Below, piece by piece: positions 2,495 to 61,055 of a stretch of 64,000 nt of DNA. Every line of letters starts with the position of its first letter. The first letter of the stretch is position 1. Made by a program: the position numbers and the translations under genes. The notes beneath the pieces are model-generated. The model was not told where the DNA came from. It did no database searches and was given only the letters and a program-made list of their open reading frames with translations. The stretch lies in NCBI GenBank assembly GCA_000165345.1, contig CM000432.1, positions 416,001 to 480,000 of the forward strand, in the 5' to 3' direction.

Positions 2495-3113
2495 ATGCCA
2501 GTTCACAAGGTGACTTCAGTAGATGGTAAGTTTTGATGAATTCGATTGAATAAAATTGTTGTGAGTAAACAAAGTGTGTTGGATAGAGGAGATTGAGCTG
2601 AACTGCATATTGGCATTTATTCATGAATGATATTAGAATATATATCTAAAATTGAAGTCATATTTTGCAGCAGGTTATATCTATCTAACTTTGTAACCCA
2701 ATTTTATTTGATTTTAATGTTTGAAGGGCTTGGAAGTCATTCATAAAAAAAAAAAAAAGAAAAAGTCCTAACTTTCCGTTTTAATTTCTTTTTGATATTT
2801 TTTTCCCACAATTTTTGAATTTTTAGAATACAAAGCTTACATCTCAAGACAAGGTCTTGTTGTTGTTGATTACTTTGCCACATGGTGTGGCCCATGTAAT
2901 ATGATTGCTCCAAAATTGGAGGAATTTAGTGAGCAAGTCAAAGATGTCTGTTTTATCAAGGTTGATGTCGATTCTCTCCCTAGTATCGCAGATGCGGAAT
3001 CGGTTAGAGCTATGCCTACATTCAAATTCTTTTTGAATGGTAAGGAAGTAAAGAGTGTGGTTGGCGCAAATTTCGAGATAATTCAACAAGCAGTTTTGGC
3101 TAATAAACCATAA
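2495..3113 (+). CDS. TRX: Thioredoxin. Two exons (2495..2525 and 2827..3113) separated by a 301-nt intron (2526..2826, GTAAGT...TTTTAG)
   Basis: The spliced product is [44 protein letters not shown]...MPTFKFFLNGKEV...ANKP. It carries the canonical WCGPC active site and aligns over its full length to cytosolic thioredoxins. Exon 1 ends in phase 1 (G) and exon 2 supplies AA to give GAA. The ORF track shows only the truncated 2901..3113 piece. Confidence 0.85.
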
Positions 3114-3489: not shown

Positions 3490-3837
3490 CTATTTACATT
3501 CACAAATCAAGCTAATGTTTTCACCTCTCAAAAGTAGCTGTCCTACACTAGTTTCTCTTCTAACTTCTTTTTTTGTATATACTTCAGATGCTTGGTCAAG
3601 CACGATATTCATATATTCATCAAAACCCTATAGACGTATTAAAAGTTATTTAATAGAAATGAATAATAATAAATAATAAATAAATTGATAGCTTACCTGT
3701 ATTACTCCCTCTAAAACTAAATTCTTGTGATCATATAACCAAATTTGTACTCTTTGTTTAGATGTAAACAAGTGGAAAATCTGGTTGATTGGTTGCAACA
3801 TCATTTTTTGAGTCTTTCTCTTTGTTTGAGAATTCAT
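3490..3837 (-). CDS. SmE: Small nuclear ribonucleoprotein E (Sm-E). Two exons (3697..3837 and 3490..3627) with a 69-nt intron (3628..3696, GTAAGC...CTATAG)
   Basis: The spliced product is MNSQTKRKTQKMMLQPINQIFHLFTSKQRVQIWLYDHKNLVLEGVIQ|GFDEYMNIVLDQASEVYTKKEVRRETSVGQLLLRGENISLICECK. This matches the Sm fold of human SNRPE nearly residue for residue (VQPINLIF...RIQVWLYE...[21 protein letters not shown]...LGRIMLKGDNITLL). The ORF track shows only exon 1, as 3646..3837, with a spurious tail. Confidence 0.85.
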
Positions 3838-4335: not shown

Positions 4336-4935
4336 TTAGTCATCATCTTTTGTACATCTCCTACACATCAGCATTACCATACATATCATCATTGTAACAA
4401 TTACTCCAAATGCAATAGTAGTGAAAGACAAAGCACTGGGAGTTGCTGCTCCTCCCATTGCTCCTGGAATACCTCCTTGTCCGGGTACCATTCCCACTCC
4501 TTGAGCAGCCATTCCACCAACTGCTGCAGGCGCTCCAGGAGTAGCACCTGCTACCGCTCCAGGAGTAGCGCCTGCTGCCGCTCCAGGAGTAGCACCTGGA
4601 ACAGCTCCTGGAGCAGCAGCTATTGCAGCTCCTGGAGAAGCTGCTGCCATTGGATTTGCTGCAGCTCCAGCAGGACTTGCACCCGCAAGAGGATTAGCAA
4701 TGCCAGGAGTAGTCATTGCAGGGTTAGCAACAAGTGGTGAACCTGTTGCACTTTGGATTCCCGTGGAAACTGCAGAACCTGCAAGACCAAGTAAAAAATT
4801 ACCTAAGCCTCCTTCTTTAAGCCTTTCTTTATATCTTACACATTCTGAATTTCTTGTAATTATTAATAAACATAACGTTATTAACAAAAAGACTGAATTA
4901 TAAGGTTTTTTTAAAGACCGATTTAAAAATGGCAT
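4336..4935 (-). CDS. Ala/Gly/Pro/Thr-rich type I membrane protein (199 aa). It has a signal peptide, a low-complexity ectodomain with GATPGA(A/V) repeats, a C-terminal TM segment and a short acidic tail (CRRCTKDDD)
   Basis: The N-terminal hydrophobic segment VFLLITLCLLII and the C-terminal segment TIAFGVIVTMMICMVMLM fit that topology. The repeat region is strongly GC-rich (gcagc/cctgg runs), unlike its surroundings. The opposite-strand ORFs at 4477..4740 and 4700..4903 are artefacts of the repeat. Confidence 0.7.
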   Translation of the reverse strand: MPFLNRSLKKPYNSVFLLITLCLLIITRNSECVRYKERLKEGGLGNFLLGLAGSAVSTGIQSATGSPLVANPAMTTPGIANPLAGASPAGAAANPMAAASPGAAIAAAPGAVPGATPGAAAGATPGAVAGATPGAPAAVGGMAAQGVGMVPGQGGIPGAMGGAATPSALSFTTIAFGVIVTMMICMVMLMCRRCTKDDD

Positions 4936-5503
4936 TATTTTCTGTATTAATTCAGTATTTTCAATTCTCCATTAATAATAATCGATTTCCAAGAGTTAAT
5001 ATTACTGTTTTTACCTTTTTTTTAATATATATTAAAATATATCTATCTATATAAATATAAATATTTATGTATTGTTTAGTTTATTATTTTCAGATTAAAT
5101 TTTTGTTGAAACGATTAAAAATGTCATTAAATTATTTATATGAAAAATAAAGTAAATTATTATTTAATTTTAGTGTGCATATTATCAGCTAATTTAATTA
5201 TTTACTTATTTTTTTTAATACAGGGTGCATATTTATTATTTCCAAATTTAAGAAATACTTTTTAGATAGATTTTTGCTTTTAGGTGTTTTGTAATATATA
5301 TTCATATTCAAACAATTAATTTCAATAATTGAAACTTTATAATATTTTAACCAAGAAATATTGTTAAAAAAATATTAACCACTTAAGCCTAAATCTTATA
5401 ATCACACAATATTAATAATTACATATAGAGTAAAATAGAAAAACCAACATACTGGCGCCAAATTTTAAAATTAGTAAAATTGATAAATTAAGTGTAAATC
5501 TAA

Positions 5504-6514
5504 TTAATTTTTTTTAATAATAGATGTTGATTCTAAAGAATTTCTAGTATGATTAATGTTTCTATTAAAACAAAATGTAGAGGATAATACAAAATAGTTT
5601 CCAATAATTAAAGCAATAATGAAGCCAAATATAAATAGTGCGGATTTGAAGGAAATTTGATCAAGGAATGTATTAATAATTTCGCCAATAATTTGAGCTG
5701 TAAAAATAGACTTTCTTGCAATAATTGTGGGATTCTGTGACATACATCTTTCCCATTCAGTACATTTAGATTCCATTGCTGGCACTCTTTGTTCTGGGTG
5801 GCATTTATTATCAACATAGTGTTTTGAACATATATTCATTTCATCCAATATGTTAGTGATTGAAATTTGAATTTTTGATTCAATATCATTTTTAATTACA
5901 AAGATTATTCCAAATATTATATATAATGTGATAAAAACTATTATTATGTTAAAAATTAGCCGAATAAATTCGTGTGTATTATCAATATTCATCCTTTTTA
6001 AAGAATTAATATATGAATTCTGATTCAGACCATGAGAAAGTTGATTAAATGAATTACAATTAAATTTTTCTGAATTGAAATCGTTATTTATAGCTTTGAT
6101 TTCTCTTTTTTTAAGTAAATTTAAACCTTTACAATAATAATTGTTATTACGTGGTGGTAGGGAATTTGATCTATTTGACAAGGTTTGGTTAATTTTATTG
6201 CAATTATTGCCAATATATTTATAATTAATTGTTAAATTTGGCTTTAGATTGTCGTTGTTTTCTTTATTCAATTTTTGATCAATTGGTTTAAAACTATTTA
6301 TAAAATCAGTTGTTTTTATATGCTCTGAATTCTTTTTGTTATCAAAATTTAGAAAGTTATTATCAACTAAGCCATTACTACTTTCATCAATTATCATTGC
6401 ATTGATCATATCTTCATCAAATTTCTCTTCCTTTAAAATTTTCGGACTTAATTTTAACATTAATTTCTGACTTAACTCCTCAATTTCTAACTCTTCTAAT
6501 ACTGTATTACTCAT
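5504..6514 (-). CDS. Two-TM protein with a four-cysteine lumenal motif (CSKHYVDNKCHPEQRVPAMESKCTEWERCMSQNP) between the helices. It is possibly Brr6/Brl1-like (nuclear envelope)
   Basis: The ORF-track start at 6553 is a TTG. The first ATG gives MSNTVLEELEIEEL... The TM helices are FIRLIFNIIIVFITLYIIFGIIFVI and ALFIFGFIIALIIGNYFVL. The Brr6-like assignment rests on recalled motif spacing only. Confidence 0.55.
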   Translation of the reverse strand: MSNTVLEELEIEELSQKLMLKLSPKILKEEKFDEDMINAMIIDESSNGLVDNNFLNFDNKKNSEHIKTTDFINSFKPIDQKLNKENNDNLKPNLTINYKYIGNNCNKINQTLSNRSNSLPPRNNNYYCKGLNLLKKREIKAINNDFNSEKFNCNSFNQLSHGLNQNSYINSLKRMNIDNTHEFIRLIFNIIIVFITLYIIFGIIFVIKNDIESKIQISITNILDEMNICSKHYVDNKCHPEQRVPAMESKCTEWERCMSQNPTIIARKSIFTAQIIGEIINTFLDQISFKSALFIFGFIIALIIGNYFVLSSTFCFNRNINHTRNSLESTSIIKKN

Positions 6515-6653: not shown

Positions 6654-6663
6654 TTGGCGCCAA
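6654..6663. promoter_or_regulatory. Palindromic E2F-like box TTGGCGCCAA about 140 bp upstream of the 5504..6514 gene. TGGCGCCAAA recurs at 5453..5462
   Basis: A GC-rich palindrome in otherwise AT-rich intergenic DNA. It has the same core as boxes at 52231, 58566 and 63153. Confidence 0.4.
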
Positions 6664-6711: not shown

Positions 6712-9700
6712 TTAATATTGCTGCTTTCTTTGCTTCATGATATTGTTTCTAAAATTTTCCTGGACATCCTTCAGACTAATTTTCTTTGAGTTCGAATCAA
6801 TAGTCTCTGAGTTTTGCAAATTTGCATTTAAAGCATTGGCTTTAATATCAGAATCTAAATGATTGTTTTGCTTTATATTAATCGCTAAATTTGGAATGAA
6901 TACTGTGGGTCTCTTGATCCCAGTTTTAATGTTATTATTCATTTCATTTTCATTGTTATTATTAGCATTTTCAAGTTTGATCAAATCATCTGAATTAATA
7001 ACAATATTATCTTCTTTCAATACATCATCAATAAATTCAGCCTCAACCAACTCATCTTGTAATGATTTAATACCTTCAATTTCTTTTGAATCAACATTAT
7101 TTCCAGACATATAATATATTGAATATCTTTTTCTTTGACCTCTCATTGTTGATGTACATAGTAATGGAGAATTATTTTGATCAGTTTCATCATCCTTTTC
7201 ATCATTATTTGATAAAATTCCTCCTTCATAATTAGATATAGATGCTCCTGTTTCTTCTAACTCCATTGGTTCATCAAGTTGTGTTATTAATGTATTTGCC
7301 TTTGCCTTCTTCCTATTATTCATCTTTAAGTGGTCGTTCAAATATAATGTATCATTCTCGATATCTTCAGTAAATTCATTCCTGCTCCTCTTGGCCTTAC
7401 GTTCTGAGGAGTTTTTCGATATAATTTCATTCTTGCTCTTTTCTTTTTCCTCCCTTTCGACTCTTTCTCTTTCTTCTCTTTCAATCCTTTCCTTTTCTTT
7501 CCTTTCAATTCTCTCTCTTTCGATCTTCTCTTTTTCTTCTCTTTCAATCCTCTCTCTTTCAATTCTTTCTCTTTCAATTCTCTCTCTTTCGATCCTCTCA
7601 TTTTCCTCTTTTTCAATTCTTTCTCTTTCTTCTCTTTCAATTCTTTCTCTTTCTTCTCTTTCAATCCTTTCCTTTTCTTTCCTTTCAATTCTCTCTCTTT
7701 CGATCTTCTCTTTTTCTTCTCTTTCAATCCTCTCTCTTTCAATTCTTTCTCTTTCAATTCTCTCTCTTTCGATCCTCTCATTTTCCTCTTTTTCAATTCT
7801 TTCTCTTTCTTCTCTTTCAATTCTCTCTCTTTCAATCCTCTCTCTTTCTTCTCTTTCAATCCTTTCCTTTTCTTCTCTTTCAATTCTCTCTCTTTCAATC
7901 CTCTCCTTTTCCTCTCTTTCAATTCTTTCTCTCTCTTCTCTTTCAATTCTCTCTCTTTCAATCCTCTCCTTTTCCTCTCTTTCAATTCTTTCTCTCTCTT
8001 CTCTTTCAATCCTTTCTCTTTCCTCCCTTTCGATTCTTTCTCTTTCTTCTCTCTTGATACATACATATCTTCTCAATGCTTTGCAAATCTGTATACATGC
8101 ATTTTTTCTCTTAATATGTCTATATAATGAAAAAAATTTAATTGAACATCTTATCATTACTAAATAGTTATTACATTTCTTCCTCAACCAATGTTTATAT
8201 AAAGAATTAATGCACTCAATTTTCCAATCCATAGAATTCTCTTGATCACATTTTTGAATAAATTGTTCAACTTTATCCAAAACATTAAATTTAAAAAATA
8301 CTCGAGTTAATCCAAGTTGGTAATCAATTTTATCCTTGTAGCCCATGTACTCCAATAATAAAGAAACAAAAAGTCTTTCATCTCTCAAGAGCAATTTTGC
8401 TTTGAATAATATGTTATTTTTATCATTTAAAGTTAAATCATTCATTGATTCTTGGTCACCAAGTTCAGTATTTATCTCAATAATTTGTTTAAAATAGTTA
8501 TAAATTTGACTGTAAGGAACTCTACAAGGATAACCATAAATCATAATATTAAGAATTTGTAAGATCCCACCAATTTGAAGCTGTTTATATACCTTTAAAC
8601 TATCAAATTTCAAAGAAATCTGCTGATTATTTGGTTTTATACATCTAATAAAATGGCTTTGAGTAGGATATAATTCATTTATTAACATATTCTGAACTTG
8701 TCTAACAAACATGCTTGAAACACTCTTATTCTTATTTGTATTCATTGGTGTTGGCACTTGATTTGTATTTTGATTAATTAAAGTTGTCAATGCATTCATT
8801 TGCAAATTATTTTTCTCAACAAAATTTGATATTCCATTTAATGACAAAATACTCTTTCTAACCAAACTTGTATCGGACATTGGACTATCATCGTTAAATA
8901 TTGCATTATTTTGATTAATATTTTCATCATCTTTGAATTGCACAGATCTTTCATCCTTATTCACTCTATTTAATAAATTATACTTAAATTTATTGATTTC
9001 TTGAATTGTATTTATTCTTGTATGTATTATTTTCTCAATATTTCCTGATAAAAAGTCTGTATTCTTTGAAATAAATTCATTACTTGTGTACTTAACGGGA
9101 CCTGCAAAATGATTTATTGTAAATGTCTTTTCAAGATTAAGTTTTTGAATTTGGATTACTCTTCCAATAGAATCAGACAAATCATTTAACTGAGGCAATA
9201 AATTATTTGTGTTCATTTCATCCTTATTATTGCATATTGATCCTCTATTTATACTCATTCTGATATTTGAATTACTTTGTAATTTATTTAGTGAATGAAC
9301 TTTATTACAAAATGCATGATCCCTATTTCCTTTCATTGGTATCTTTCCTGTTTCATCAAGAATTGATATAATATTATATGGAAGCAGGCTCAACATTGAA
9401 TTATTATACTGAAATTTCTCATAAAATGGATGTGGTGTGCAACTATTACCATCACTTCTTGATTCATTTCCATCTATTTCTGTGTTATTAAGATACTTTG
9501 GATTTACACCACTCATGACTGTACAAACGAATGACTGATGGAATAATAAATCCATTACATTTGCTGATGGAGTTGTCGAAATACTATTATTTATTCCCTC
9601 AGTTTTATATAATACTGTATCTCTATATAGTAATTGTTCCAAAAAGAAGCTATGCAGTCTTTCATTACAATAATTAATCAATAATTGTTCAAAACTATTC

Positions 9701-11415
9701 ACATGGTTTGGTTCCAAATCTTCAAATCCAAAAATATCCAAAATACCTATTGAATTATTTTGGTCTGATTTATTCATAGAATTTTCACTATTTTCGAATA
9801 TATTCTGTTTTAACGCTATATTTATTAACTCTACGATTAAATTAAAAATCCATTCATAGAGATATCTGGAGATACTATCTCTAGTATATATTGCCTCTGA
9901 ATACGATAGCCTTTTCTTAATTTTCACGATACTTTTTGTAGTTAATAATTCGATCAATTCTTCATTGCTCATTTTACTAAAATCTGAATCAGAATCAAAG
10001 TTGTAATTCCATATTTGTACGATTTGGTTTATTATTGATATTGACTCTTGAGTAAGCTCACATTCATCTTCATCTTTATTTTCAACAGGATTAAACTCAA
10101 TATTTCCTAACAATAAGATTGTGTATATCATATCGTATATCAAATCTCTATTATCCTCCGAAACCCCAATTGATTGAAAGCAATCATTAATTATTTTAAT
10201 ATTATATGGAACAGATTTCACAATTTCTCTCAAATTTTCACTTTTTAATGAGTTTTTACCGATACTTTGTCTAAAACTTTTTGAATCCACAGTCTTCAAA
10301 TAATTAAATTCTAGAGAAGAGTTATCACACGTTATTCCCCACCTAGTTTTCTGCGTTTCGTTTATTTCATTTAAAATATGATAGAAAATATGATAATTCC
10401 TTTCATTATTTGGAAGGTGTACTACTCTTGATTTTGCAAGCAAGTAAGTATTTATGGATGCATTAATTATTTTCCCGTTTTCATCAAATCCAAGTTTCAT
10501 ATACTTTCCAAATCGTGATGAATTATCGTTTCGAATTGTTCTTGAATTCCCAAATACTTCTAACAACGGATTTGAAGAAAGAAGACAGTTTTCAATAGTT
10601 GATAAATGAAGTCCCTCCACTTTATCAACAATATTATTAGTAGCATTTTTCATTCTTTGTCTATTGCTTACATAACTCAAATATTTCAATACATGCTTTG
10701 AAGTTTCAGTTTTTCCTGCTCCACTCTCTCCTGAAATTATTATTGATTGAGATCTATTATCCTTGAGCATTCTCCTATACGTCCATTCTGCTATTGCAAA
10801 TGGGTGAGGTTCCATATTCATTATATTCTTTCCTATGAATTCTTGTGCAGTTTCATCGTTATAAATATCATACTCCTTATATGGATTTACTGCAATCAAA
10901 ATTCCTCCTGCAAAACTGTACATTGGATACTTCGGAAAATCGTCACCACTTCTAATTCCACTCAATTTCATTTTTTCTTCACTATTGTTTTCTGTTACAT
11001 TATTACTACCTTTTAACATATCATAACAAACTTGAATATTTCTTATCACATTACCGATATTTAGATTTCTCAGCTGTGAATTATCCTTATAACCAAATCC
11101 ATCATCTGCCTTATATACAAATTCCTTATCTACATAAAAATTAATTTTAGCATCTTCTATTTCATCTCTAAATTCACCAATATATTCACATAAATATATT
11201 TTCTGTTTGGAATCGTAAGAAATTACGCATGCAAATAGAAATGCATCCAAATTAGATTCAACATTTTCAATTTCAGATTCAAATTTATTTAAACCTTCCA
11301 AGAAAGCCTTTGCTTTTTTTTCAGCCAATTTATTTGATAACTCTATTGTATGTGGATTTGCTCTGGAATATATCCAAACTTTATTCCCTTTACTTATTTC
11401 ATTGTAATTTTCCAT
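6712..11415 (-). CDS. Unconventional myosin heavy chain (1567 aa). Motor domain followed by an ER/K-rich single-alpha-helix or coiled-coil region and a tail
   Basis: P-loop GESGAGKTE, switch II LDIFGFE and the wider head architecture are present. An IQ-like segment (IQICKALRRYVCIKR) is followed by (IEREERER)n repeats. Confidence 0.9.
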   Translation of the reverse strand: MENYNEISKGNKVWIYSRANPHTIELSNKLAEKKAKAFLEGLNKFESEIENVESNLDAFLFACVISYDSKQKIYLCEYIGEFRDEIEDAKINFYVDKEFVYKADDGFGYKDNSQLRNLNIGNVIRNIQVCYDMLKGSNNVTENNSEEKMKLSGIRSGDDFPKYPMYSFAGGILIAVNPYKEYDIYNDETAQEFIGKNIMNMEPHPFAIAEWTYRRMLKDNRSQSIIISGESGAGKTETSKHVLKYLSYVSNRQRMKNATNNIVDKVEGLHLSTIENCLLSSNPLLEVFGNSRTIRNDNSSRFGKYMKLGFDENGKIINASINTYLLAKSRVVHLPNNERNYHIFYHILNEINETQKTRWGITCDNSSLEFNYLKTVDSKSFRQSIGKNSLKSENLREIVKSVPYNIKIINDCFQSIGVSEDNRDLIYDMIYTILLLGNIEFNPVENKDEDECELTQESISIINQIVQIWNYNFDSDSDFSKMSNEELIELLTTKSIVKIKKRLSYSEAIYTRDSISRYLYEWIFNLIVELINIALKQNIFENSENSMNKSDQNNSIGILDIFGFEDLEPNHVNSFEQLLINYCNERLHSFFLEQLLYRDTVLYKTEGINNSISTTPSANVMDLLFHQSFVCTVMSGVNPKYLNNTEIDGNESRSDGNSCTPHPFYEKFQYNNSMLSLLPYNIISILDETGKIPMKGNRDHAFCNKVHSLNKLQSNSNIRMSINRGSICNNKDEMNTNNLLPQLNDLSDSIGRVIQIQKLNLEKTFTINHFAGPVKYTSNEFISKNTDFLSGNIEKIIHTRINTIQEINKFKYNLLNRVNKDERSVQFKDDENINQNNAIFNDDSPMSDTSLVRKSILSLNGISNFVEKNNLQMNALTTLINQNTNQVPTPMNTNKNKSVSSMFVRQVQNMLINELYPTQSHFIRCIKPNNQQISLKFDSLKVYKQLQIGGILQILNIMIYGYPCRVPYSQIYNYFKQIIEINTELGDQESMNDLTLNDKNNILFKAKLLLRDERLFVSLLLEYMGYKDKIDYQLGLTRVFFKFNVLDKVEQFIQKCDQENSMDWKIECINSLYKHWLRKKCNNYLVMIRCSIKFFSLYRHIKRKNACIQICKALRRYVCIKREERERIEREERERIEREERERIEREEKERIERERIEREERERIEREEKERIERERIEREEKERIEREERERIERERIEREERERIEKEENERIERERIERERIERERIEREEKEKIERERIERKEKERIEREERERIEREERERIEKEENERIERERIERERIERERIEREEKEKIERERIERKEKERIEREERERVEREEKEKSKNEIISKNSSERKAKRSRNEFTEDIENDTLYLNDHLKMNNRKKAKANTLITQLDEPMELEETGASISNYEGGILSNNDEKDDETDQNNSPLLCTSTMRGQRKRYSIYYMSGNNVDSKEIEGIKSLQDELVEAEFIDDVLKEDNIVINSDDLIKLENANNNNENEMNNNIKTGIKRPTVFIPNLAINIKQNNHLDSDIKANALNANLQNSETIDSNSKKISLKDVQENFRNNIMKQRKQQY
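7380..8066. repeat. Coding TC-rich tandem repeat array encoding the ER/K heptad-like repeats of the myosin. It includes a perfect 180-bp tandem duplication (7462..7644 equals 7642..7824)
   Basis: Direct comparison of the sequence lines shows 7471-7650 and 7651-7830 identical except at the far ends. The protein carries a duplicated 60-aa block (RIEKEENERIERERIERERIERERIEREEKEKIERERIERKEKERIEREERER). Confidence 0.85.
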
Positions 11416-42777: not shown

Positions 42778-44847
42778 ATGAAAATAAAATTAAATGATAC
42801 AAACAACGGGATTATTATTTTTACAAAATGTGATTCTGAAGATTTAATTATCACGAAGTGTGTCATCCAATTAAATGAAGATTTTGAACATTTTTTCTCA
42901 CAAATTACTAAGGATAAAGTTAAAAATGATACTTGCTTTAATAAGATATCAATAACAATGAATAGGAATCCATCAGAAGATGTGTCTATATTTACTAAAA
43001 GACTTTCTCTGAACCTGAAGAAACATATTGGAAATTTTATTAAGTTGAGATTTAGCCAAAGCTTGAAAGTAGAAATTAGCGTAAAAATACAAGATAATAA
43101 TTTCAACGACATTGGAAACGTGAAATTAGAAGATATTATTAATAGTCAGAATCTGGATGTTGCTAAAGTTAGTGTGGTGGCAAATAATGAAAAATGCCAA
43201 CACTTTTATTTTTTAATTAAGAAAAATGTACCTTTGATTGAATCTGTAAACATAAAAAATGAAATCATATGGGGGTTCCCAATTGTACCAAACATAACAT
43301 TTATAAAAGGGGAGTCGAATAATTTTTCATATAAGTGGTATTTACAGTATAATATAAATGAAGCAAAAACAAAACATGATATATTGCCAAATCTTCCAGA
43401 AAATGTAATTGAAATTGATCAAAATTATATTTGTGATTTGAAAGCAGAATTTACAAATAAAGAGGAAATGTCTAAAATTCTCGAGAACATTGAAAACTAT
43501 TCAATAATATTTAGAATTATGCTAAATTCTGAAATATCTTCATTATTTGACACTATTTATAGATTTAATCATATTAATAAACCGCTGGAAGCATGTTGGA
43601 GAGAAGAAAGAATAAACCGTTTTAAAGGTGATTTGAAATTAAGTCCTGAATTGAATGTTAATAGATTAAAAATAGTGACTTTCAATATTCTATCGGAAAT
43701 ATGTGCTCAGACAGATAAGGCTCTAAATGAAATGTATACAAGTTGTCCACAATATGCATTACATTCCAATTATAGAAGAAGTTTATTAGCTAGGGAGCTT
43801 ATTGACTTGAATGCAGATATAATAGGTCTTCAAGAAGTTCAGTCTTGTTTATACGAGTCGTTTATTCATATATTAATGGAATTTAAAGGATATTCAGGTG
43901 TTTTTAATTCTGACTATGCCAGTGTTACAACATTTTACAAAAGAGAATTATTTAATTTATTAGAATCTGATACAATACTTTTCAAAAAAATGTTAATTAA
44001 TGATTATCCGGAAATTGTTAAAGAAATTAAAGTAAAATGGCCAAACTTTATTGAATACTTGCTAGATAAAATTTTAACAGTATTTCAAATTGTCGTATTA
44101 GAACATAAAATTACCAATGTAATTTATGTGTTCGCCAACACGCACTTCTACTATCATCCTTTTGGGGGTCATGTTAGAATTCTACAGGCAAAGTTACTCA
44201 TGGATTTAATTGAAAAGTACCTGAAGAGATTAAGATTGAGTTTTCCATCTAAAGAAGTTTTCACCTTTTTATTTGGTGACTTCAACACGCTTGCCATTTC
44301 AGATGCTAGAACACTTTTCACTGAAGGTATTATTAACTCAAATTCATCCGAATGGATTCACTCTACACTTCTTAATTATAATAAAAAAGAAAGATCAGAC
44401 AGCAATGATGAACAATGTGAAAATGTTAATGGCCATCTTAACGAAGATGAACTCAAAAATTTAGAGTTACATAGTTTGGGTTTTGATCTTCAGACCAATA
44501 ATAGGTGTATTGATTTGTTGGATATTCATCTAGACAAAAAATATAATAATATACAAATTCGTCATAAAGAAAAAGAAAGGATTGAAAATGCTGATTCCAA
44601 AGGGTTTAGTAGTAGTTTATATTATCCTTTCACAAATAAAGTCAACCGGTTTTCTGGCCAGTTAGATTATATTTATCTAGTAGAAGAAGAAGCTTTTTCC
44701 GACAAGTTTAACATTTTTTTGAACAACTTTTTGCCATATATAGATGAAGCAGCCTTATCTCCAATTAACACTCTTCCATCACCTCAATATCCATCGGATC
44801 ATATCTCAATAGGAATTGATATTTCAATAACTAAGAATGAAAATTAA
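42778..44847 (+). CDS. Endonuclease/exonuclease/phosphatase (EEP) family protein of the CCR4/nocturnin/PDE12 type, with a 280-aa N-terminal region of unknown function
   Basis: The C-terminal half carries LKIVTFNILSE, DIIGLQEVQ, ANTHFYYHP, LFGDFN and SDHISIGIDISI. These are the conserved Mg-binding and catalytic EEP motifs in the order seen in CCR4-type deadenylases. Confidence 0.75.
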   Translation: MKIKLNDTNNGIIIFTKCDSEDLIITKCVIQLNEDFEHFFSQITKDKVKNDTCFNKISITMNRNPSEDVSIFTKRLSLNLKKHIGNFIKLRFSQSLKVEISVKIQDNNFNDIGNVKLEDIINSQNLDVAKVSVVANNEKCQHFYFLIKKNVPLIESVNIKNEIIWGFPIVPNITFIKGESNNFSYKWYLQYNINEAKTKHDILPNLPENVIEIDQNYICDLKAEFTNKEEMSKILENIENYSIIFRIMLNSEISSLFDTIYRFNHINKPLEACWREERINRFKGDLKLSPELNVNRLKIVTFNILSEICAQTDKALNEMYTSCPQYALHSNYRRSLLARELIDLNADIIGLQEVQSCLYESFIHILMEFKGYSGVFNSDYASVTTFYKRELFNLLESDTILFKKMLINDYPEIVKEIKVKWPNFIEYLLDKILTVFQIVVLEHKITNVIYVFANTHFYYHPFGGHVRILQAKLLMDLIEKYLKRLRLSFPSKEVFTFLFGDFNTLAISDARTLFTEGIINSNSSEWIHSTLLNYNKKERSDSNDEQCENVNGHLNEDELKNLELHSLGFDLQTNNRCIDLLDIHLDKKYNNIQIRHKEKERIENADSKGFSSSLYYPFTNKVNRFSGQLDYIYLVEEEAFSDKFNIFLNNFLPYIDEAALSPINTLPSPQYPSDHISIGIDISITKNEN

Positions 44848-52425: not shown

Positions 52426-54966
52426 ATGTCTGAAAATAGCGTTGATATTCGCTCTGTGCAAGCCACGAACTGCACAGAGTCTGACATGGGGCAAACCTTA
52501 ACAGAAAATATACTTAATTCAAAAGAAAATAGAGAGGCTTCACTCTCTTTTGACGACTTTTTTCTCTTTAAATCTTCCTCAGATAGTAAGATTGAGAAGA
52601 TTAATTATTCCGATTTGGTCGAACATGATTCCGCAGATTTGGACGATAATTCAATCGATTATATATCTAATCCAGATAAAACTCAAATGGAAGACTTAAA
52701 CTTTACTGGAAGTACTTCAAGTCGCTACTCTAATACTGAATTCAAATTAAAAAAGAGTGCTTCAAATAGTACTTTAGACGAGTTTAATAGAGGGATACTA
52801 AATGATGAACTCGAAACTGAATATGTCAAGTTGATCCCTAACTCAGAAATTGTTTTTGCTAAGTCATACGATAAGGAAATGAATATTGCAATTGGTTTGA
52901 TTGACGAGGTACTAAAAATGAGAGACGAATGGAATTACGAGCTACCTAAAATAGAACATGATCATTTAATAGCTCACAACTATGGGAATTTACAAGATGG
53001 AAACCCTATATTAGATATTGAATTATTGGTAGATACTTTACCAGAAAAGATAGATGCCAAATATGAAATGATTAATGGTGTTTATAGTATTAAATGGTAT
53101 TCAAATAGAAATTTACTTTATAACCCTATAACATTCAAAGCAATTAAGAAAGCAGGTACAGCTGACATAAACTTGAATTTTGACGTAAAATGTGATTTTA
53201 ATGAACAATCCGGAGAGTCACTATGCATGAAAAAAAGTTTCCCAATATATGAATCTGAAAGTAAGTCTGTGCACGAATTCATAAGATGTTTAAGAAGAAT
53301 AATGAGTCTGGTTCATAGTCCAATAGTAAAGAGTTTTACATATTATAGATTAAAATTCTTACTACAAAGCTATCAATTATATTCACTTTTTAACGGAAAA
53401 TTTGAAAATGAGTTGTCGAAAAAGAATATTAGGACTGGTTTCTATAATGTTTATAAAGTTGATACACATGTTCACCATTCAGCATGCATGAGCCAACAGC
53501 ATCTTCTTAAGTTCATTAGGAAATGCTATAATTCAGACAAGGACCGTGTAGTATTTTACAATCATGATAATGCTCCAAGTACATTAGGGCAGGTATTCAA
53601 TAATGTGTTTGGTTGTGACTATCAAAATAACTCTATAGATCACTTAAATATGGATGCAATTAGGAACTGTTTTCAAAGGTTTGATAGATTTAACGAGAAA
53701 TATAATCCATTCGGTTCCAATCTGATGAGAGATATATTCTTAAAATATAATAATCCAATTAAAGGAAAATATCTTGCTGAAATTACAAAGGAAGTAATTC
53801 AAGATTTGAAAACTACGCATTATCAATTTGTGGAATGGAGAATCAGTGTCTACGGTAAAGACAAGAGCGAATGGAAAACTTTAGCAGAGTGGCTATATAA
53901 TAATGGTTTATATTGTAAACATGTAAGATGGATCATTCAGATTCCAAGACTTTATAATATTTTTCACAAAGATGGGTGCGTTAAAACATTCAGTGAAATG
54001 CTCGAAAACATATTTTCCCCATTAATAGAAGCATTGATCAATCCAAAAGATAATCCCCTGATTTTTATTTTACTTACTAATATTGTTGGTTGGGATACAG
54101 TAGATGATGAAAGCCAAATAAGTAAGTATTCAATGGATAACCCGAACTTTTGTTATCCAGAATATTGGAGATCAGGAGATAACCCACCATACTCTTATTG
54201 GGGCTTCTATCTTTATAGTAATATTCGAGTGCTAAATCAACTTTTATACTCTAGAGGTTTAAATCCATTGATGTTCAGGCCTCATTGTGGAGAAGCTGGA
54301 AAAATCTCACACTTAGCTACAATGTATTTATTAGCTGATTCTATTAACCACGGAATATTACTAAAAAAAACTCCAGTATTGCAATATTTATACTACTTGA
54401 AACAAATTGGCATTGCAGTTTCTCCTGTTTCTAACAATGCGTTGTTTTTGGAGTTAATGAAAAATCCATTCCCAAAGTTTTTTAATGTTGGATTAAATGT
54501 CTCGCTATCAACTGATGATCCCCTTATTTTTCACTTCACAGATGAATCTCTTCTCGAAGAGTATTCTATTGCCTCTCATATTTGGAAATTGAACAATATT
54601 GACCTTTGCGAGATCGCAAGAAATTCGGTTCTTCAGTCTGGATTTTCACCAAAATATAAGGCAAGTTGGTTAGGTGTGAAAAACTACAGTCATTTAAATA
54701 AATCACTATATAATATTTTAAATGATTTGGAACCTTGTGAAATCAACGATATTTCGAGGTCTAATGTCCCAAACATTAGAATCCAGTTTAGAAAAGATAT
54801 GCTTAAAGGTGAAATGGACCTCATAAATAAGTATACAGTTTCAATTGATAGAATCGAAAATGCAATAAATATTGTAAAAAATTTAAGACTGAAAAATGTT
54901 TCTGATAATATAAGCAAAGAAGGAGTTAATCGTAACTCTAATACCTTAATGAATAATTTCCCCTAA
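52426..54966 (+). CDS. AMPD: AMP deaminase
   Basis: The motifs are KVDTHVHHSACMSQQHLLKFI, SNLMRDIFLKYNN, FRPHCGEAG and LSTDDPLIF. These are the zinc-ligand and catalytic motifs of eukaryotic AMP deaminases (Pfam A_deaminase). Confidence 0.9.
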   Translation: MSENSVDIRSVQATNCTESDMGQTLTENILNSKENREASLSFDDFFLFKSSSDSKIEKINYSDLVEHDSADLDDNSIDYISNPDKTQMEDLNFTGSTSSRYSNTEFKLKKSASNSTLDEFNRGILNDELETEYVKLIPNSEIVFAKSYDKEMNIAIGLIDEVLKMRDEWNYELPKIEHDHLIAHNYGNLQDGNPILDIELLVDTLPEKIDAKYEMINGVYSIKWYSNRNLLYNPITFKAIKKAGTADINLNFDVKCDFNEQSGESLCMKKSFPIYESESKSVHEFIRCLRRIMSLVHSPIVKSFTYYRLKFLLQSYQLYSLFNGKFENELSKKNIRTGFYNVYKVDTHVHHSACMSQQHLLKFIRKCYNSDKDRVVFYNHDNAPSTLGQVFNNVFGCDYQNNSIDHLNMDAIRNCFQRFDRFNEKYNPFGSNLMRDIFLKYNNPIKGKYLAEITKEVIQDLKTTHYQFVEWRISVYGKDKSEWKTLAEWLYNNGLYCKHVRWIIQIPRLYNIFHKDGCVKTFSEMLENIFSPLIEALINPKDNPLIFILLTNIVGWDTVDDESQISKYSMDNPNFCYPEYWRSGDNPPYSYWGFYLYSNIRVLNQLLYSRGLNPLMFRPHCGEAGKISHLATMYLLADSINHGILLKKTPVLQYLYYLKQIGIAVSPVSNNALFLELMKNPFPKFFNVGLNVSLSTDDPLIFHFTDESLLEEYSIASHIWKLNNIDLCEIARNSVLQSGFSPKYKASWLGVKNYSHLNKSLYNILNDLEPCEINDISRSNVPNIRIQFRKDMLKGEMDLINKYTVSIDRIENAINIVKNLRLKNVSDNISKEGVNRNSNTLMNNFP

Positions 54967-58706: not shown

Positions 58707-61055
58707 TTAAATATTCCATTCAAATTCTGTTAATAATGGAAGGTGATCAGACGGTCTTTGAGGATTTGGCAGAGACCAGTCAGGAAGTTGCAGAGCAGCA
58801 GCTTCACGAATAAGGGCCTCCTCATCTAAAAGTTCAAGAACTCCTCCAAGTCTTAGTCTTTCATCAGTATAGAATACATAATCTAGACATCCAAGATAGT
58901 TTGGGGTATAATTCGTGAAAACAGGTTCAAGAGATTCAGTAGATGACACGAGCATGTTTGGGTTGTGACCTTCAACCATAGCTTTTGCCATAGAATATGC
59001 ACTGCGTAAACGCATTGAGTGTCCAAGTTGTAGATCAGAAAGTAGTCCATAACGGTCCATGGCAAGGTCTTTGTGTGTTTTTTCACAGGTTCCAGTTGCT
59101 AAAAGACGATATAAGGCACTATCAGGCGTACTGTTGAAATCACCACAAATAATAAGGCCAGGTAATACAGGCTGTCTTCTGTAACAGTCATGCAGATATT
59201 CTTCTAATACTGACACTAGAGTTTGCGCCTGCCAAATTTTTACATCATTTGCTTCTGGATTTGCAACTATGTGTGTATTTGCAATAATAACTTGTAGTGG
59301 AGTAGAAGAATTCATCGATTTCTTAGGATCAGATTGTATTTGGTTATTCGATGATGGAATGAGTACTCCGGCTTGATTCTGAACATTGTTTACCATCAAG
59401 TTAGTACCACTCATTCCAACAATTCCTCTGTTATTTACTCCTGACGAATTTCCTGTTAGCTGATTATGAATGGAATGATTTGAATCTGAGCCAATTAAAT
59501 CATTTTGACGATATTCAAGAAGAATAACAACTGCAACATTATCTTTAAGCAGTCTTTTAATTGCTGCGGGATTATTCTTTACTTCAGCCGGGAGGGTTCT
59601 ATGCGTAGCTTCTTTGATAAGAGCGGAAAACTCCAATGAATAGTTTTCCTTAGCAATAAATTTATTGGTTTTATAGAACGTAGCACATCCATCCATAGTA
59701 TATTTCCCATCTTTCCTTCTTCCACTTCCGGATGTAAAGATCTCTGTAGTTTTTTGTTTATAAACACCTTCATAGCCATATTGTTGCAATACGGGCTTGA
59801 AAAAGTCGTCAAAGTGCTCAGTTTGAACTTCTTGGAGGCAGACAATATCAGGTTGATGACTCAGAATTTCAACAATAATTCTAGTTTTACGATACGACCA
59901 TGAAAGCATGTATGCATCGCAATGAGGAAATGCTTCTTGGCTGGCATAAATTTCTGCAAGAACATTCCAAGAAAAGACTTTAAATCTAGAATGACTTATG
60001 GCCGTTCCTGTGTTGTGATGAATCCCAACTCCATTCATTTGGTTATTAGGCATATTTAAAATACACCTCGGAGGAGCTTGAGGAAGATTAGGAACACAAC
60101 AGGCTGTAGTGATTTGCGAATAAGTTTCTGAAAAACTTCTAGCTTCGGATAGAGATTTTTCAAAAAGTTCTGAATTTGGATCTAATCCTGACTTAAATAC
60201 TAAAAAGACTTCCAATTTCAATTGGTGACCGACATCTTCCGAAACTGGTAAATAATTCCTCTGGTCACCGACCGGAATCCACTCTTCTTGATCTGTTGAT
60301 ATATGAACTAATCCTGTCTTTAAAAGGAGAGAAATATGGGCATCATCTCTGTCTCTCAAGGAGTTGTCTGGGTCATTAAATTGAAACGGCCTACAGGGAA
60401 CACCATAAGTATGGCTATTTGGATGCGGAGATATAGGACTCATCCCCCTAACTTCATAAAAGCGCCTTAACTGAGCAAATCCTTGCTTATAGCAGCCAAC
60501 TCCGCAGAAGCATCTTAATGTTGTGGCACATTGTAATGTTGCAACTTGGCTTGGATGAAATGTACAAACTGCACGAGATGGGCCTCTACTCCAGCGGTAA
60601 TGAATACTAGCCAAGCCACTGATTACAGGATTTTCTGGGTTTTCATCGTCATCATCCCAAAGCTTGCCCATTTTGTCTCTTAAAATCACAATAGGTTGTA
60701 ATTCACAACTTTCTACCGGAGTTATTGGGACTTTTTTTCTAGATGAAACATAAACCAAATCACACCTATAAAGTTCTACCCCATTTTTGTTATTAGAGTA
60801 ATTTTCAGAATTTTTATTTGCAGTGAATTCTTTTTCTAGAATCCTCCCTTCAAGATCCCCATCCCCCTTCATATCAGAAATTGACTCTTTATTTTTTCTG
60901 TGATTTGACCTGGAATTCTTCTCATCTGAAATATTATTAGTTTGCTGGGTTACTGTCCCAATTCGTTCTGAGGTTTCCCTCTCAAATTTAGTTCCATTAG
61001 ATTTTACTTCGAAACCTTTATTATTATCATCAATAATATTTGCTATCTTATTCAT
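58707..61055 (-). CDS. CCR4: CCR4-type deadenylase (CCR4-NOT catalytic subunit homologue) with an N-terminal Cys-rich extension
   Basis: The C-terminal EEP domain is FKVFSWNVLAEIYAS...DIVCLQEVQTEHFDDFF...GCATFYKTNKF...IIANTHIVANPE...LIICGDFNSTPDSALYRLL...DYVFYT...SDHLPLLTEFEW, which matches the CCR4/CNOT6 nuclease fold closely. GC content (about 45%) is markedly above that of neighbouring genes. Confidence 0.85.
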   Translation of the reverse strand: MNKIANIIDDNNKGFEVKSNGTKFERETSERIGTVTQQTNNISDEKNSRSNHRKNKESISDMKGDGDLEGRILEKEFTANKNSENYSNNKNGVELYRCDLVYVSSRKKVPITPVESCELQPIVILRDKMGKLWDDDDENPENPVISGLASIHYRWSRGPSRAVCTFHPSQVATLQCATTLRCFCGVGCYKQGFAQLRRFYEVRGMSPISPHPNSHTYGVPCRPFQFNDPDNSLRDRDDAHISLLLKTGLVHISTDQEEWIPVGDQRNYLPVSEDVGHQLKLEVFLVFKSGLDPNSELFEKSLSEARSFSETYSQITTACCVPNLPQAPPRCILNMPNNQMNGVGIHHNTGTAISHSRFKVFSWNVLAEIYASQEAFPHCDAYMLSWSYRKTRIIVEILSHQPDIVCLQEVQTEHFDDFFKPVLQQYGYEGVYKQKTTEIFTSGSGRRKDGKYTMDGCATFYKTNKFIAKENYSLEFSALIKEATHRTLPAEVKNNPAAIKRLLKDNVAVVILLEYRQNDLIGSDSNHSIHNQLTGNSSGVNNRGIVGMSGTNLMVNNVQNQAGVLIPSSNNQIQSDPKKSMNSSTPLQVIIANTHIVANPEANDVKIWQAQTLVSVLEEYLHDCYRRQPVLPGLIICGDFNSTPDSALYRLLATGTCEKTHKDLAMDRYGLLSDLQLGHSMRLRSAYSMAKAMVEGHNPNMLVSSTESLEPVFTNYTPNYLGCLDYVFYTDERLRLGGVLELLDEEALIREAAALQLPDWSLPNPQRPSDHLPLLTEFEWNI

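Follow-up and report, generated by a model that had tools for sequence, protein, structure and literature searches.

cgd4_1670, a Cryptosporidium-restricted gene, probably encodes a single-pass membrane protein with a head, a stalk, and an anchor rather than a mucin

Introduction

Proteins of the syndecan/glycophorin type have a signal peptide, an unstructured and variable ectodomain, and a conserved transmembrane (TM) helix that packs through small residues and is followed by a short tail; the anchor and tail carry most of the function. In Plasmodium EXP1 and the ETRAMPs, and in Toxoplasma GRA5 and GRA6, the TM helix is central and the C-terminal domain is charged. Glycosylphosphatidylinositol (GPI) anchors hold several surface glycoproteins of Cryptosporidium. 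Mucins have been defined by a content of 20-55% Ser, Thr, and Pro and extensive O-glycosylation, and Cryptosporidium parvum has 29 mucin genes, including Muc25 with 72 predicted O-glycosylation sites (PMC12407990). Here we analyze cgd4_1670, a C. parvum gene in a 64,000-nucleotide (nt) stretch of DNA (GenBank assembly GCA_000165345.1, contig CM000432.1, forward-strand positions 416,001 to 480,000), which we call the window and number from its first letter. A first-pass annotation, made by a model from the letters alone, had described the gene product as a mucin-like surface antigen. We conclude instead that cgd4_1670 is probably a genus-specific, single-pass type I membrane protein of zoite-forming stages, built as a head, a stalk, and an anchor. 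Its place appears to be among the type I single-pass proteins with a disordered ectodomain, where it is new and genus specific, and not among the mucins.

Like the Cryptosporidium mucin-type glycoproteins (GP900, GP60/gp40-gp15, and Muc1 to Muc29), the product of cgd4_1670 appears to be a secretory, invasive-stage protein with a low-complexity, proline-containing ectodomain. The likeness extends to some of them being type I TM proteins (GP900) and some varying in repeat number. However, mucins have long Ser/Thr tracts, whereas cgd4_1670 has 25 Ser and Thr residues in total, a linker composition that is not conserved genus-wide, and purifying selection. Its poorly conserved ectodomain and highly conserved TM helix and short tail recall the syndecan/glycophorin type, from which it differs in having no homology, no Ser-Gly glycosaminoglycan sites, a tail of only 8 residues, and a conserved membrane-distal head. 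With EXP1/ETRAMPs and GRA5/GRA6 it shares short length, genus restriction, a signal peptide, one TM helix, and Gly-rich helices or regions, but its TM helix is at the extreme C terminus with an 8-amino-acid (aa) tail, and an exhaustive profile search detected no homology to either group. The stalk resembles elastin/abductin domains in being uncharged, rich in Gly, Ala, Pro, Val, and Met, built on short repeated motifs (GATPGAAA and GMVPGQGGIPGAMGG), and predicted to be disordered. Unlike elastin, it has no VPGXG periodicity (its period is 8 aa) and no cross-linking Lys, it is tethered to a membrane, and it is only ~90-115 aa long.

Results

cgd4_1670 is annotated but unstudied

The gene is a 199-aa, single-exon open reading frame (ORF) at 4336..4935 on the minus strand, given in the ORF list of the window as a complete coding sequence with its stop codon. 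Its full translation is MPFLNRSLKKPYNSVFLLITLCLLIITRNSECVRYKERLKEGGLGNFLLGLAGSAVSTGIQSATGSPLVANPAMTTPGIANPLAGASPAGAAANPMAAASPGAAIAAAPGAVPGATPGAAAGATPGAVAGATPGAPAAVGGMAAQGVGMVPGQGGIPGAMGGAATPSALSFTTIAFGVIVTMMICMVMLMCRRCTKDDD. This is an exact match to a C. parvum Iowa II protein (EAK87908.1/UniProt Q5CR90/CPATCC_001901) with the database name "hypothetical protein." To identify the gene, we looked in the window for the reverse transcription-PCR (RT-PCR) primers that Mauzy et al. published in 2012 (PMC3305300, Table S2). They placed cgd4_1650 (thioredoxin) at 2958-3060 and cgd4_1680 (Brr6-like) at 5766, followed by cgd4_1690 (myosin) and cgd4_1700 (NOG1), and the series runs in order to cgd4_1830. 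With these neighbors placed by primers, and with the LSm gene being cgd4_1660, the ORF is therefore cgd4_1670. The identifier agrees with the C. meleagridis tag cmbei_4001670, and the row "cgd4_1670 Uncharacterized protein" of Tandel et al. 2019 stands between cgd4_1640 and cgd4_1690.

All of the flanking genes are housekeeping genes (thioredoxin, LSm, Brr6-like, myosin, and NOG1), and the locus is neither subtelomeric nor within a secreted-protein cluster. The first-pass annotation did not recognize a named antigen here, and correctly so; it was also right in guessing Cryptosporidium as the organism. A full-text search of a literature library found no paper that mentions cgd4_1670 in its main text, the RT-PCR time course of 3,302 genes by Mauzy et al. 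does not include it, and the DG8 interactome supplement lists neither cgd4_1670 nor cgd4_1310. cgd4_1670 is already annotated, yet uncharacterized.

The protein has a head, a stalk, and an anchor

The features of the gene, all on the minus strand, are as follows.

4846..4935, minus strand: predicted signal peptide (aa 1-30), with n-region MPFLNRSLKKPYNS, h-region VFLLITLCLLIIT, and c-region RNS
4717..4845, minus strand: conserved N-terminal head (aa 31-73), ECVRYKERLKEGGLGNFLLGLAGSAVSTGIQSATGSPLVANPA, holding 19 of the 33 columns that are invariant genus-wide
4750..4809, minus strand: hydrophobic, Gly/Ala/Ser-rich, glycine-zipper-like helix within the head (aa 43-62), from a low-confidence AlphaFold2 helix and Eisenberg hydrophobicity
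4438..4716, minus strand: uncharged, disordered Ala/Gly/Pro stalk (aa 74-166), which is the GC-rich patch, from composition and AlphaFold2
4524..4641, minus strand: tandem array of GATPGA(A/V)A-type units, with Tandem Repeats Finder scores of 124 and 139
4363..4431, minus strand: TM helix LSFTTIAFGVIVTMMICMVMLMC (aa 169-191), from its Kyte-Doolittle maximum and an AlphaFold2 helix
4339..4362, minus strand: predicted cytosolic tail RRCTKDDD (aa 192-199), with CRRC, K196, and D197 invariant genus-wide

The putative signal peptide has an n-region charge of +3, a 13-residue h-region, and a Kyte-Doolittle hydropathy of 1.84 over aa 15-33. Heuristics gave (-3,-1)-compatible cleavage candidates at 27/28 (IIT/RNS) and 32/33 (SEC/VRY). 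A hydrophobic stretch is kept at this position in all orthologues, and the source of the C. canis orthologue gives it the name "signal peptide-containing protein." The second hydrophobic segment, aa 168-192, reaches 2.48 on the Kyte-Doolittle scale, and three cysteines (C185, C191, and C194) lie next to the membrane. An N-terminal signal-like sequence, one C-terminal TM helix, and RR directly after that helix are the marks of a predicted type I single-pass protein. This topology fits the positive-inside rule because the linker is uncharged and RR follows the TM helix.

AlphaFold2, run on an 11-sequence alignment, placed helices at residues 3-29, 32-41, 44-64, and 169-198 and left residues 65-168 unstructured. 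The stalk had a predicted local distance difference test (pLDDT) score of ~30, without predicted secondary structure. It is 93 aa long (108 aa if counted from aa 60), with Ala, Gly, and Pro making up 72% and Ser and Thr 9%, a grand average of hydropathy of +0.59, and zero charged residues in C. parvum. With hmmscan against Pfam-A at E up to 1, the sole match was to EphA2_TM, below threshold and on the TM helix, and no family was assigned. A sequence search of the PDB returned only low-complexity noise, such as GldM at E = 0.008.

The first-pass annotation had given the overall order as a signal peptide, a low-complexity ectodomain, a single TM helix, and a short charged tail. That order stands, with the TM helix and RRCTKDDD tail clear and the signal peptide borne out by heuristics only (charge, h-region, and cleavage sites). 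It had also described about 120 aa of repeats. A low-complexity linker is indeed present, but it measures 93-108 aa, and only ~39 aa of it are true tandem repeat. That array has a 24-nt period and 4.9 copies over 118 nt, with 80% matches by Tandem Repeats Finder, and the ATPGA motif occurs three times in the protein. In the 64-kb window, only this array and the ER/K array of the myosin gene score at least 100.

The guanine-plus-cytosine (GC) content is 0.565-0.595 over 4401-4700 versus 0.13-0.30 in the flanks, in agreement with the original description of a repeat region of 55-60% GC in an AT-rich locus. The patch as a whole has 57% GC, and the locus 20-30%. Over aa 60-167, GC at the first, second, and third codon positions (GC1, GC2, and GC3) is 0.78, 0.79, and 0.148, and GC3 of the neighboring genes is 0.19-0.28. 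The GC-rich part uses GCT or GCA codons for Ala, GGA or GGT for Gly, and CCT or CCA for Pro. Because the GC excess is confined to codon positions 1 and 2, it reflects amino acid composition. The GC-rich patch is a by-product of Ala/Gly/Pro codon content in an AT-biased genome. A foreign origin for it is ruled out by its GC3, which is at or below that of the neighbors.

The gene is single copy, genus-wide, and found only in Cryptosporidium

A word-indexed search found orthologues in C. hominis, C. meleagridis, C. canis, C. ryanae, C. xiaoi, C. bovis, and one Logan assembly, and a cluster look-up added C. tyzzeri. The C. hominis orthologue has 199 aa (207 aa in TU502). A HMMER profile search of 1.84 billion representative proteins gave three matches, all of them Cryptosporidium (C. 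canis, C. ryanae, and C. andersoni). The C. andersoni protein is cand_028550, with 173 aa and E = 9e-20 in that search. Gene order is conserved as well. The orthologue adjoins the Brr6-like gene and has thioredoxin on its other side in C. hominis, C. meleagridis, C. bovis, the Logan species, and C. andersoni; in three of these (C. hominis, C. meleagridis, and C. andersoni), an LSm gene was called between the orthologue and thioredoxin. The cgd4_1670 family is single copy, genus-wide, and Cryptosporidium-restricted as far as HMMER detects.

C. andersoni, a gastric species, has a different linker. cand_028550 (L010/L011, 5001-5522) keeps the head and the ICMVML.CRRCTKDDD anchor without the conserved Cys32 and without an Ala/Gly/Pro stalk. 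Its linker has 72 aa and is rich in Asn, Thr, and Met, with Ala, Gly, and Pro at 19%, Ser and Thr at 19%, and 9 charged residues. The Ala/Gly/Pro repeats are thus an innovation of the intestinal lineages.

Selection acts on the head and the anchor

We counted invariant columns in an eight-species alignment that runs from C. parvum to C. andersoni. Apart from the start Met, all 33 fall within two blocks, aa 34-72 and aa 170-197. The head block holds R34, G45, L48, G50, A52, A55, G59, Q61, T64-P67, N71, and P72, and the anchor block reads SF..I.F...V.M.ICMVML.CRRC.KD. The ratio of nonsynonymous to synonymous substitution rates (dN/dS), calculated by the Nei-Gojobori method among C. parvum, C. 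hominis, and C. meleagridis, follows the same pattern.

Head: 0.05-0.08
Anchor: 0.13-0.26
Linker: 0.22-0.46
Whole protein: 0.18-0.29

The linker varies in both length and sequence between species. Its length is 88-116 aa outside C. andersoni and 72-116 aa across the genus. Non-andersoni linkers have 59-80% Ala, Gly, and Pro and 4-16% Ser and Thr. Nine of the ten non-andersoni sequences have no charged residue in the linker, and the Logan species has one. To judge from these alignments, selection is acting on the 43-aa head and on the near-invariant TM helix and Cys-rich tail.

Expression is consistent with zoite assembly

cgd4_1670 is among the differentially expressed genes in the supplements of Tandel et al. 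2019 (PMC6877471). Its mean log2 counts per million are as follows.

Sorted asexual stages: 4.80
In vitro females (unfertilized): 2.96
In vivo females: 5.66

The log fold change is -1.84 for female versus asexual and +2.70 for in vivo versus in vitro. The gene is also in the sheet "SporoVSinvivo-Female," together with actin, myosin regulatory light chain, articulin, cgd3_1770, and a CP15/60-like protein. Tandel et al. report that in vivo conditions are needed for fertilization and sporulation to take place (PMC6877471). Therefore, cgd4_1670 would be on during zoite assembly, and it may be switched on at that point both in meronts and in postfertilization sporogony.

In the same sheet (supplement 8), the row directly before cgd4_1670 is cgd4_1310, a "Glycine zipper-containing protein" whose gene adjoins cgd4_1300 (Muc12). 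A functional link between cgd4_1310 and the Gly-rich head of cgd4_1670 is possible.

The sequence upstream of the gene has the following features.

4936..5503, minus strand: upstream intergenic region and putative promoter, holding TGGCGCCA and two copies of GTGCATAT
5453-5460 and 6655-6662: palindrome TGGCGCCA, present twice in the window versus 0.06 expected
5175-5182 and 5225-5232: GTGCATAT, 50 nt apart and 240-300 nt upstream of the cgd4_1670 start codon

C. parvum, C. hominis, and C. meleagridis share 92% identity over the upstream region. TGGCGCCA is an E2F-like motif and the most overrepresented upstream motif of C. parvum (PMC3734150). One copy (5453-5460) is 45 nt past the cgd4_1680 stop codon and ~520 nt upstream of cgd4_1670, and it is conserved in C. 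hominis and C. meleagridis. The other (6655-6662) is ~100 nt upstream of the Brr6-like gene cgd4_1680. GTGCATAT contains AP2-like TGCAT/HTGCACH motifs described in the same study (PMC3734150), and the TGCAC core is conserved in C. hominis and C. meleagridis. Its enrichment in the window was not significant (4 versus 1.57 expected, with 9 of 100 shuffles reaching the observed count).

A mucin-like antigen is unlikely

The first-pass annotation had called the protein mucin-like, rich in potential O-glycosylation sites, and of a kind that is often antigenic and polymorphic. If so, cgd4_1670 would be an O-glycosylated zoite surface antigen with functional repeats that bear glycans, elicit immunity, vary between isolates, and mediate attachment. 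We consider this unlikely, although it does account for several observations. A predicted signal peptide, a low-complexity ectodomain, and a membrane anchor are all present, and the transcript is found in zoite-making stages. Ser, Thr, and Pro together make up 21.5% of the whole protein, which is at the lower edge of the 20-55% range for mucins (PMC12407990), and there are eight [ST]P dipeptides, including the three ATPGA units. However, proline carries the 21.5% figure. Ser and Thr make up 12.5% overall and 9% of the linker, with no runs of either, so the protein lacks the dense acceptor sites of a mucin and its richness in O-glycosylation sites had been overstated. Nor are the linker Thr sites conserved. 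C. meleagridis, C. xiaoi, and C. bovis have few or no ATPG threonines; linker Ser and Thr fall to 4% in C. meleagridis and 5% in C. xiaoi; and the C. andersoni linker is unrelated. The first-pass annotation had said that orthologues lacking the repeat domain and located inside the cell would refute it, and the first half of this holds for the C. andersoni orthologue, with its linker that is not Ala/Gly/Pro rich.

Catalogues and homology searches agree with this. The numbered mucin genes are set out in a supplementary file of Xu et al. 2019, and cgd4_1670 does not appear in that file. In the portion of their mucin table covering Muc11 (cgd3_720), Muc12 (cgd4_1300), and Muc13 (cgd5_340), the sole chromosome 4 entry is Muc12. 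Word-indexed and exhaustive profile searches found no sequence homology to Cryptosporidium mucins. The housekeeping surroundings of the gene also argue against a secreted-antigen locus.

Comparison of repeat number between isolates did turn up a length variant, which favors a polymorphic antigen as far as it goes. C. hominis TU502 has one extra 8-aa GATPGAAA unit, seen in two assemblies, which accounts for its 207 aa; this is the sole length variant found. Otherwise, the protein hardly varies. Its 90% cluster in a 15-billion-protein collection has only three members: the C. parvum sequence, a K196R variant, and C. tyzzeri. The public C. parvum-type sequences are therefore two near-identical ones that differ by K196R. 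The exact C. parvum sequence was present in 37 blocks of a contig collection, from which 23 contigs were read. There was no signal of gp60-like polymorphism or diversifying selection, as dN/dS is below 1 in every region and does not exceed 0.46 even in the linker. These results support neither the mucin-like nor the antigenic, polymorphic character, and on the evidence tested the mucin or antigen interpretation is weak and unsupported. Sparse O-linked N-acetylgalactosamine on a few T-P sites, and surface exposure, would nevertheless be possible for a protein of this sequence.

Other topologies are less probable

The head helix raises the question of whether the protein crosses the membrane more than once. 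Its residues (aa 43-62) might be embedded in the same membrane, or in an apposed one in the manner of a fusion peptide, instead of forming a soluble head, making cgd4_1670 a hairpin or multipass protein or an oligomeric glycine-zipper pore. The Eisenberg mean hydrophobicity of this helix is 0.57, equal to that of the signal peptide h-region, and its hydrophobic moment is low (0.18). The helix is not amphipathic, because it is uniformly hydrophobic. In addition, small residues recur at positions i and i+4, and the segment is strongly conserved. Its composition presumably resembles that of viral fusion peptides and of the Plasmodium EXP1 TM helix, which we take as a lead only. However, its Kyte-Doolittle hydropathy is ~1.16 (calculated by hand), under the usual TM thresholds, and no 19-residue window in this segment exceeds 1.4. 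The segment includes Asn, Gln, and several Ser, Thr, and Gly residues, and if it did span the membrane, the RR tail would be placed on the luminal side, contrary to the positive-inside rule. The Pfam glycine-zipper families (Gly-zipper_Omp, OmpA, YMGG, and Rick_17kDa_Anti) gave no match with hmmscan at E up to 1. A hairpin or pore is therefore quite doubtful on our assessment.

The C-terminal hydrophobic segment could instead be a GPI attachment signal that is cleaved off, and the small residues before it (GGAATPS) would suit such a site. However, an 8-residue charged tail follows the hydrophobic stretch, and the near invariance of TM helix and tail across the genus is not expected of a discarded signal, which makes GPI anchoring very improbable. 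A spurious ORF held open by GC-rich, stop-poor sequence is effectively refuted: other long frames are open here (4477-4740 and 4700-4903, both on the plus strand), but frame, termini, and synteny are conserved from C. parvum to C. andersoni, dN/dS is well below 1, and mRNA has been detected.

Other genes in the window

Two neighbors of cgd4_1670 are longer in public gene models than in the window. The thioredoxin (cgd4_1650) ORF at 2901-3113 on the plus strand is a 70-aa fragment of a 105-aa model with a longer span, and the LSm (cgd4_1660) ORF at 3646-3837 on the minus strand is a 63-aa fragment of a 92-aa model, again with a longer span. Because the window ORFs are shorter than the models, each of the two genes appears to be interrupted by intron sequence, an uncommon feature in C. 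parvum.

The myosin gene cgd4_1690 (6712-11415) has ~200 aa of near-perfect (EREERERI/EKERIERERI)n repeats at 7440-8048 on the minus strand, with a plus-strand GC skew of -1.0 and an AT skew of -0.7. Following an IQ-like stretch, the repeats look in composition like an ER/K single-alpha-helix lever extension. Farther away are a full-length AMP deaminase at 52426-54966 on the plus strand (E = 1e-201) and two divergent Exo_endo_phos (endonuclease/exonuclease/phosphatase) genes, 14 kb apart on opposite strands (42778-44847, plus, and 58707-61055, minus).

Discussion

We favor the interpretation of cgd4_1670 as a head-stalk-anchor membrane protein, and the way in which it might work can be sketched. 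The protein would enter the secretory pathway, so that the tail would face the cytosol and the head and stalk would lie in a lumen or outside the cell. Function would be carried by the conserved head and by the invariant anchor formed by the TM helix and tail. The head might self-associate through small-residue helix packing, or it might bind or insert at a partner or an apposed membrane. Membrane-proximal cysteines are classic candidates for S-palmitoylation, and C185, C191, and C194 may be modified in this way. The anchor could be sorted or organized through these palmitoylatable cysteines together with the TM helix. The stalk would be a flexible, uncharged spacer with an exact sequence of little importance, changing by replication slippage of its 24-nt unit. 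The protein would be made while invasive zoites assemble.

Several points weigh against this interpretation. The proposed mechanism is drawn from sequence alone, and the evidence for a signal peptide, and with it for entry into the secretory pathway, is heuristic. The AlphaFold2 model has a mean pLDDT of 42, which is low confidence. The dN/dS values are based on few substitutions (13-21 nonsynonymous differences per pair). The head helix is hydrophobic enough for membrane embedding (Kyte-Doolittle ~1.16 by hand and Eisenberg 0.57), and an embedded helix could change the topology. Expression is low to moderate and comes from a single bulk RNA-seq study, in which the link to zoite assembly is an interpretation from co-listed genes.

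A bolder version of the same architecture is that cgd4_1670 is a Cryptosporidium-specific tether that bridges membranes, with a palmitoylated anchor, an elastin-like stalk, and a distal helix like a fusion peptide. The TM helix and tail would sit in the membrane of the zoite or of a secretory organelle, and the uncharged stalk would be a spacer that can extend or cohere. The Gly/Ala/Ser helix would then insert or oligomerize at the host apical membrane, the parasitophorous vacuole membrane, or another organelle. We regard this as a long shot. If true, it would add a previously unseen component to the unusual host-parasite interface or to zoite secretion.

The amino acid sequence also suggests why the protein has gone unnoticed in functional screens. 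Past the predicted cleavage site, Lys and Arg occur only in ECVRYKERLK and RRCTK, and the mature protein has a run of 151 residues without either. In silico, trypsin produces a single fragment of 152 residues, and none of its other products exceeds 4 residues. Therefore, shotgun proteomes that use trypsin are expected to miss the cgd4_1670 protein, and spatial proteomics would be expected to miss it as well. It has probably been missed in proteomic maps on account of this single fragment. It follows that sporozoite surface proteomics with trypsin would give a false negative, which other proteases or CNBr would avoid. cgd4_1670 is an orphan that slipped through the main functional screens (tryptic proteomes and the RT-PCR atlas).

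Because the GC island is not of foreign origin and a mucin antigen is improbable, the sequence gives no reason to rank cgd4_1670 high as a vaccine candidate or typing marker. What distinguishes it is an invariant TM helix and tail together with a conserved hydrophobic head, an unusually strong constraint for so small a protein. If the protein is at the zoite surface or at the host interface, it would offer a compact target specific to Cryptosporidium.

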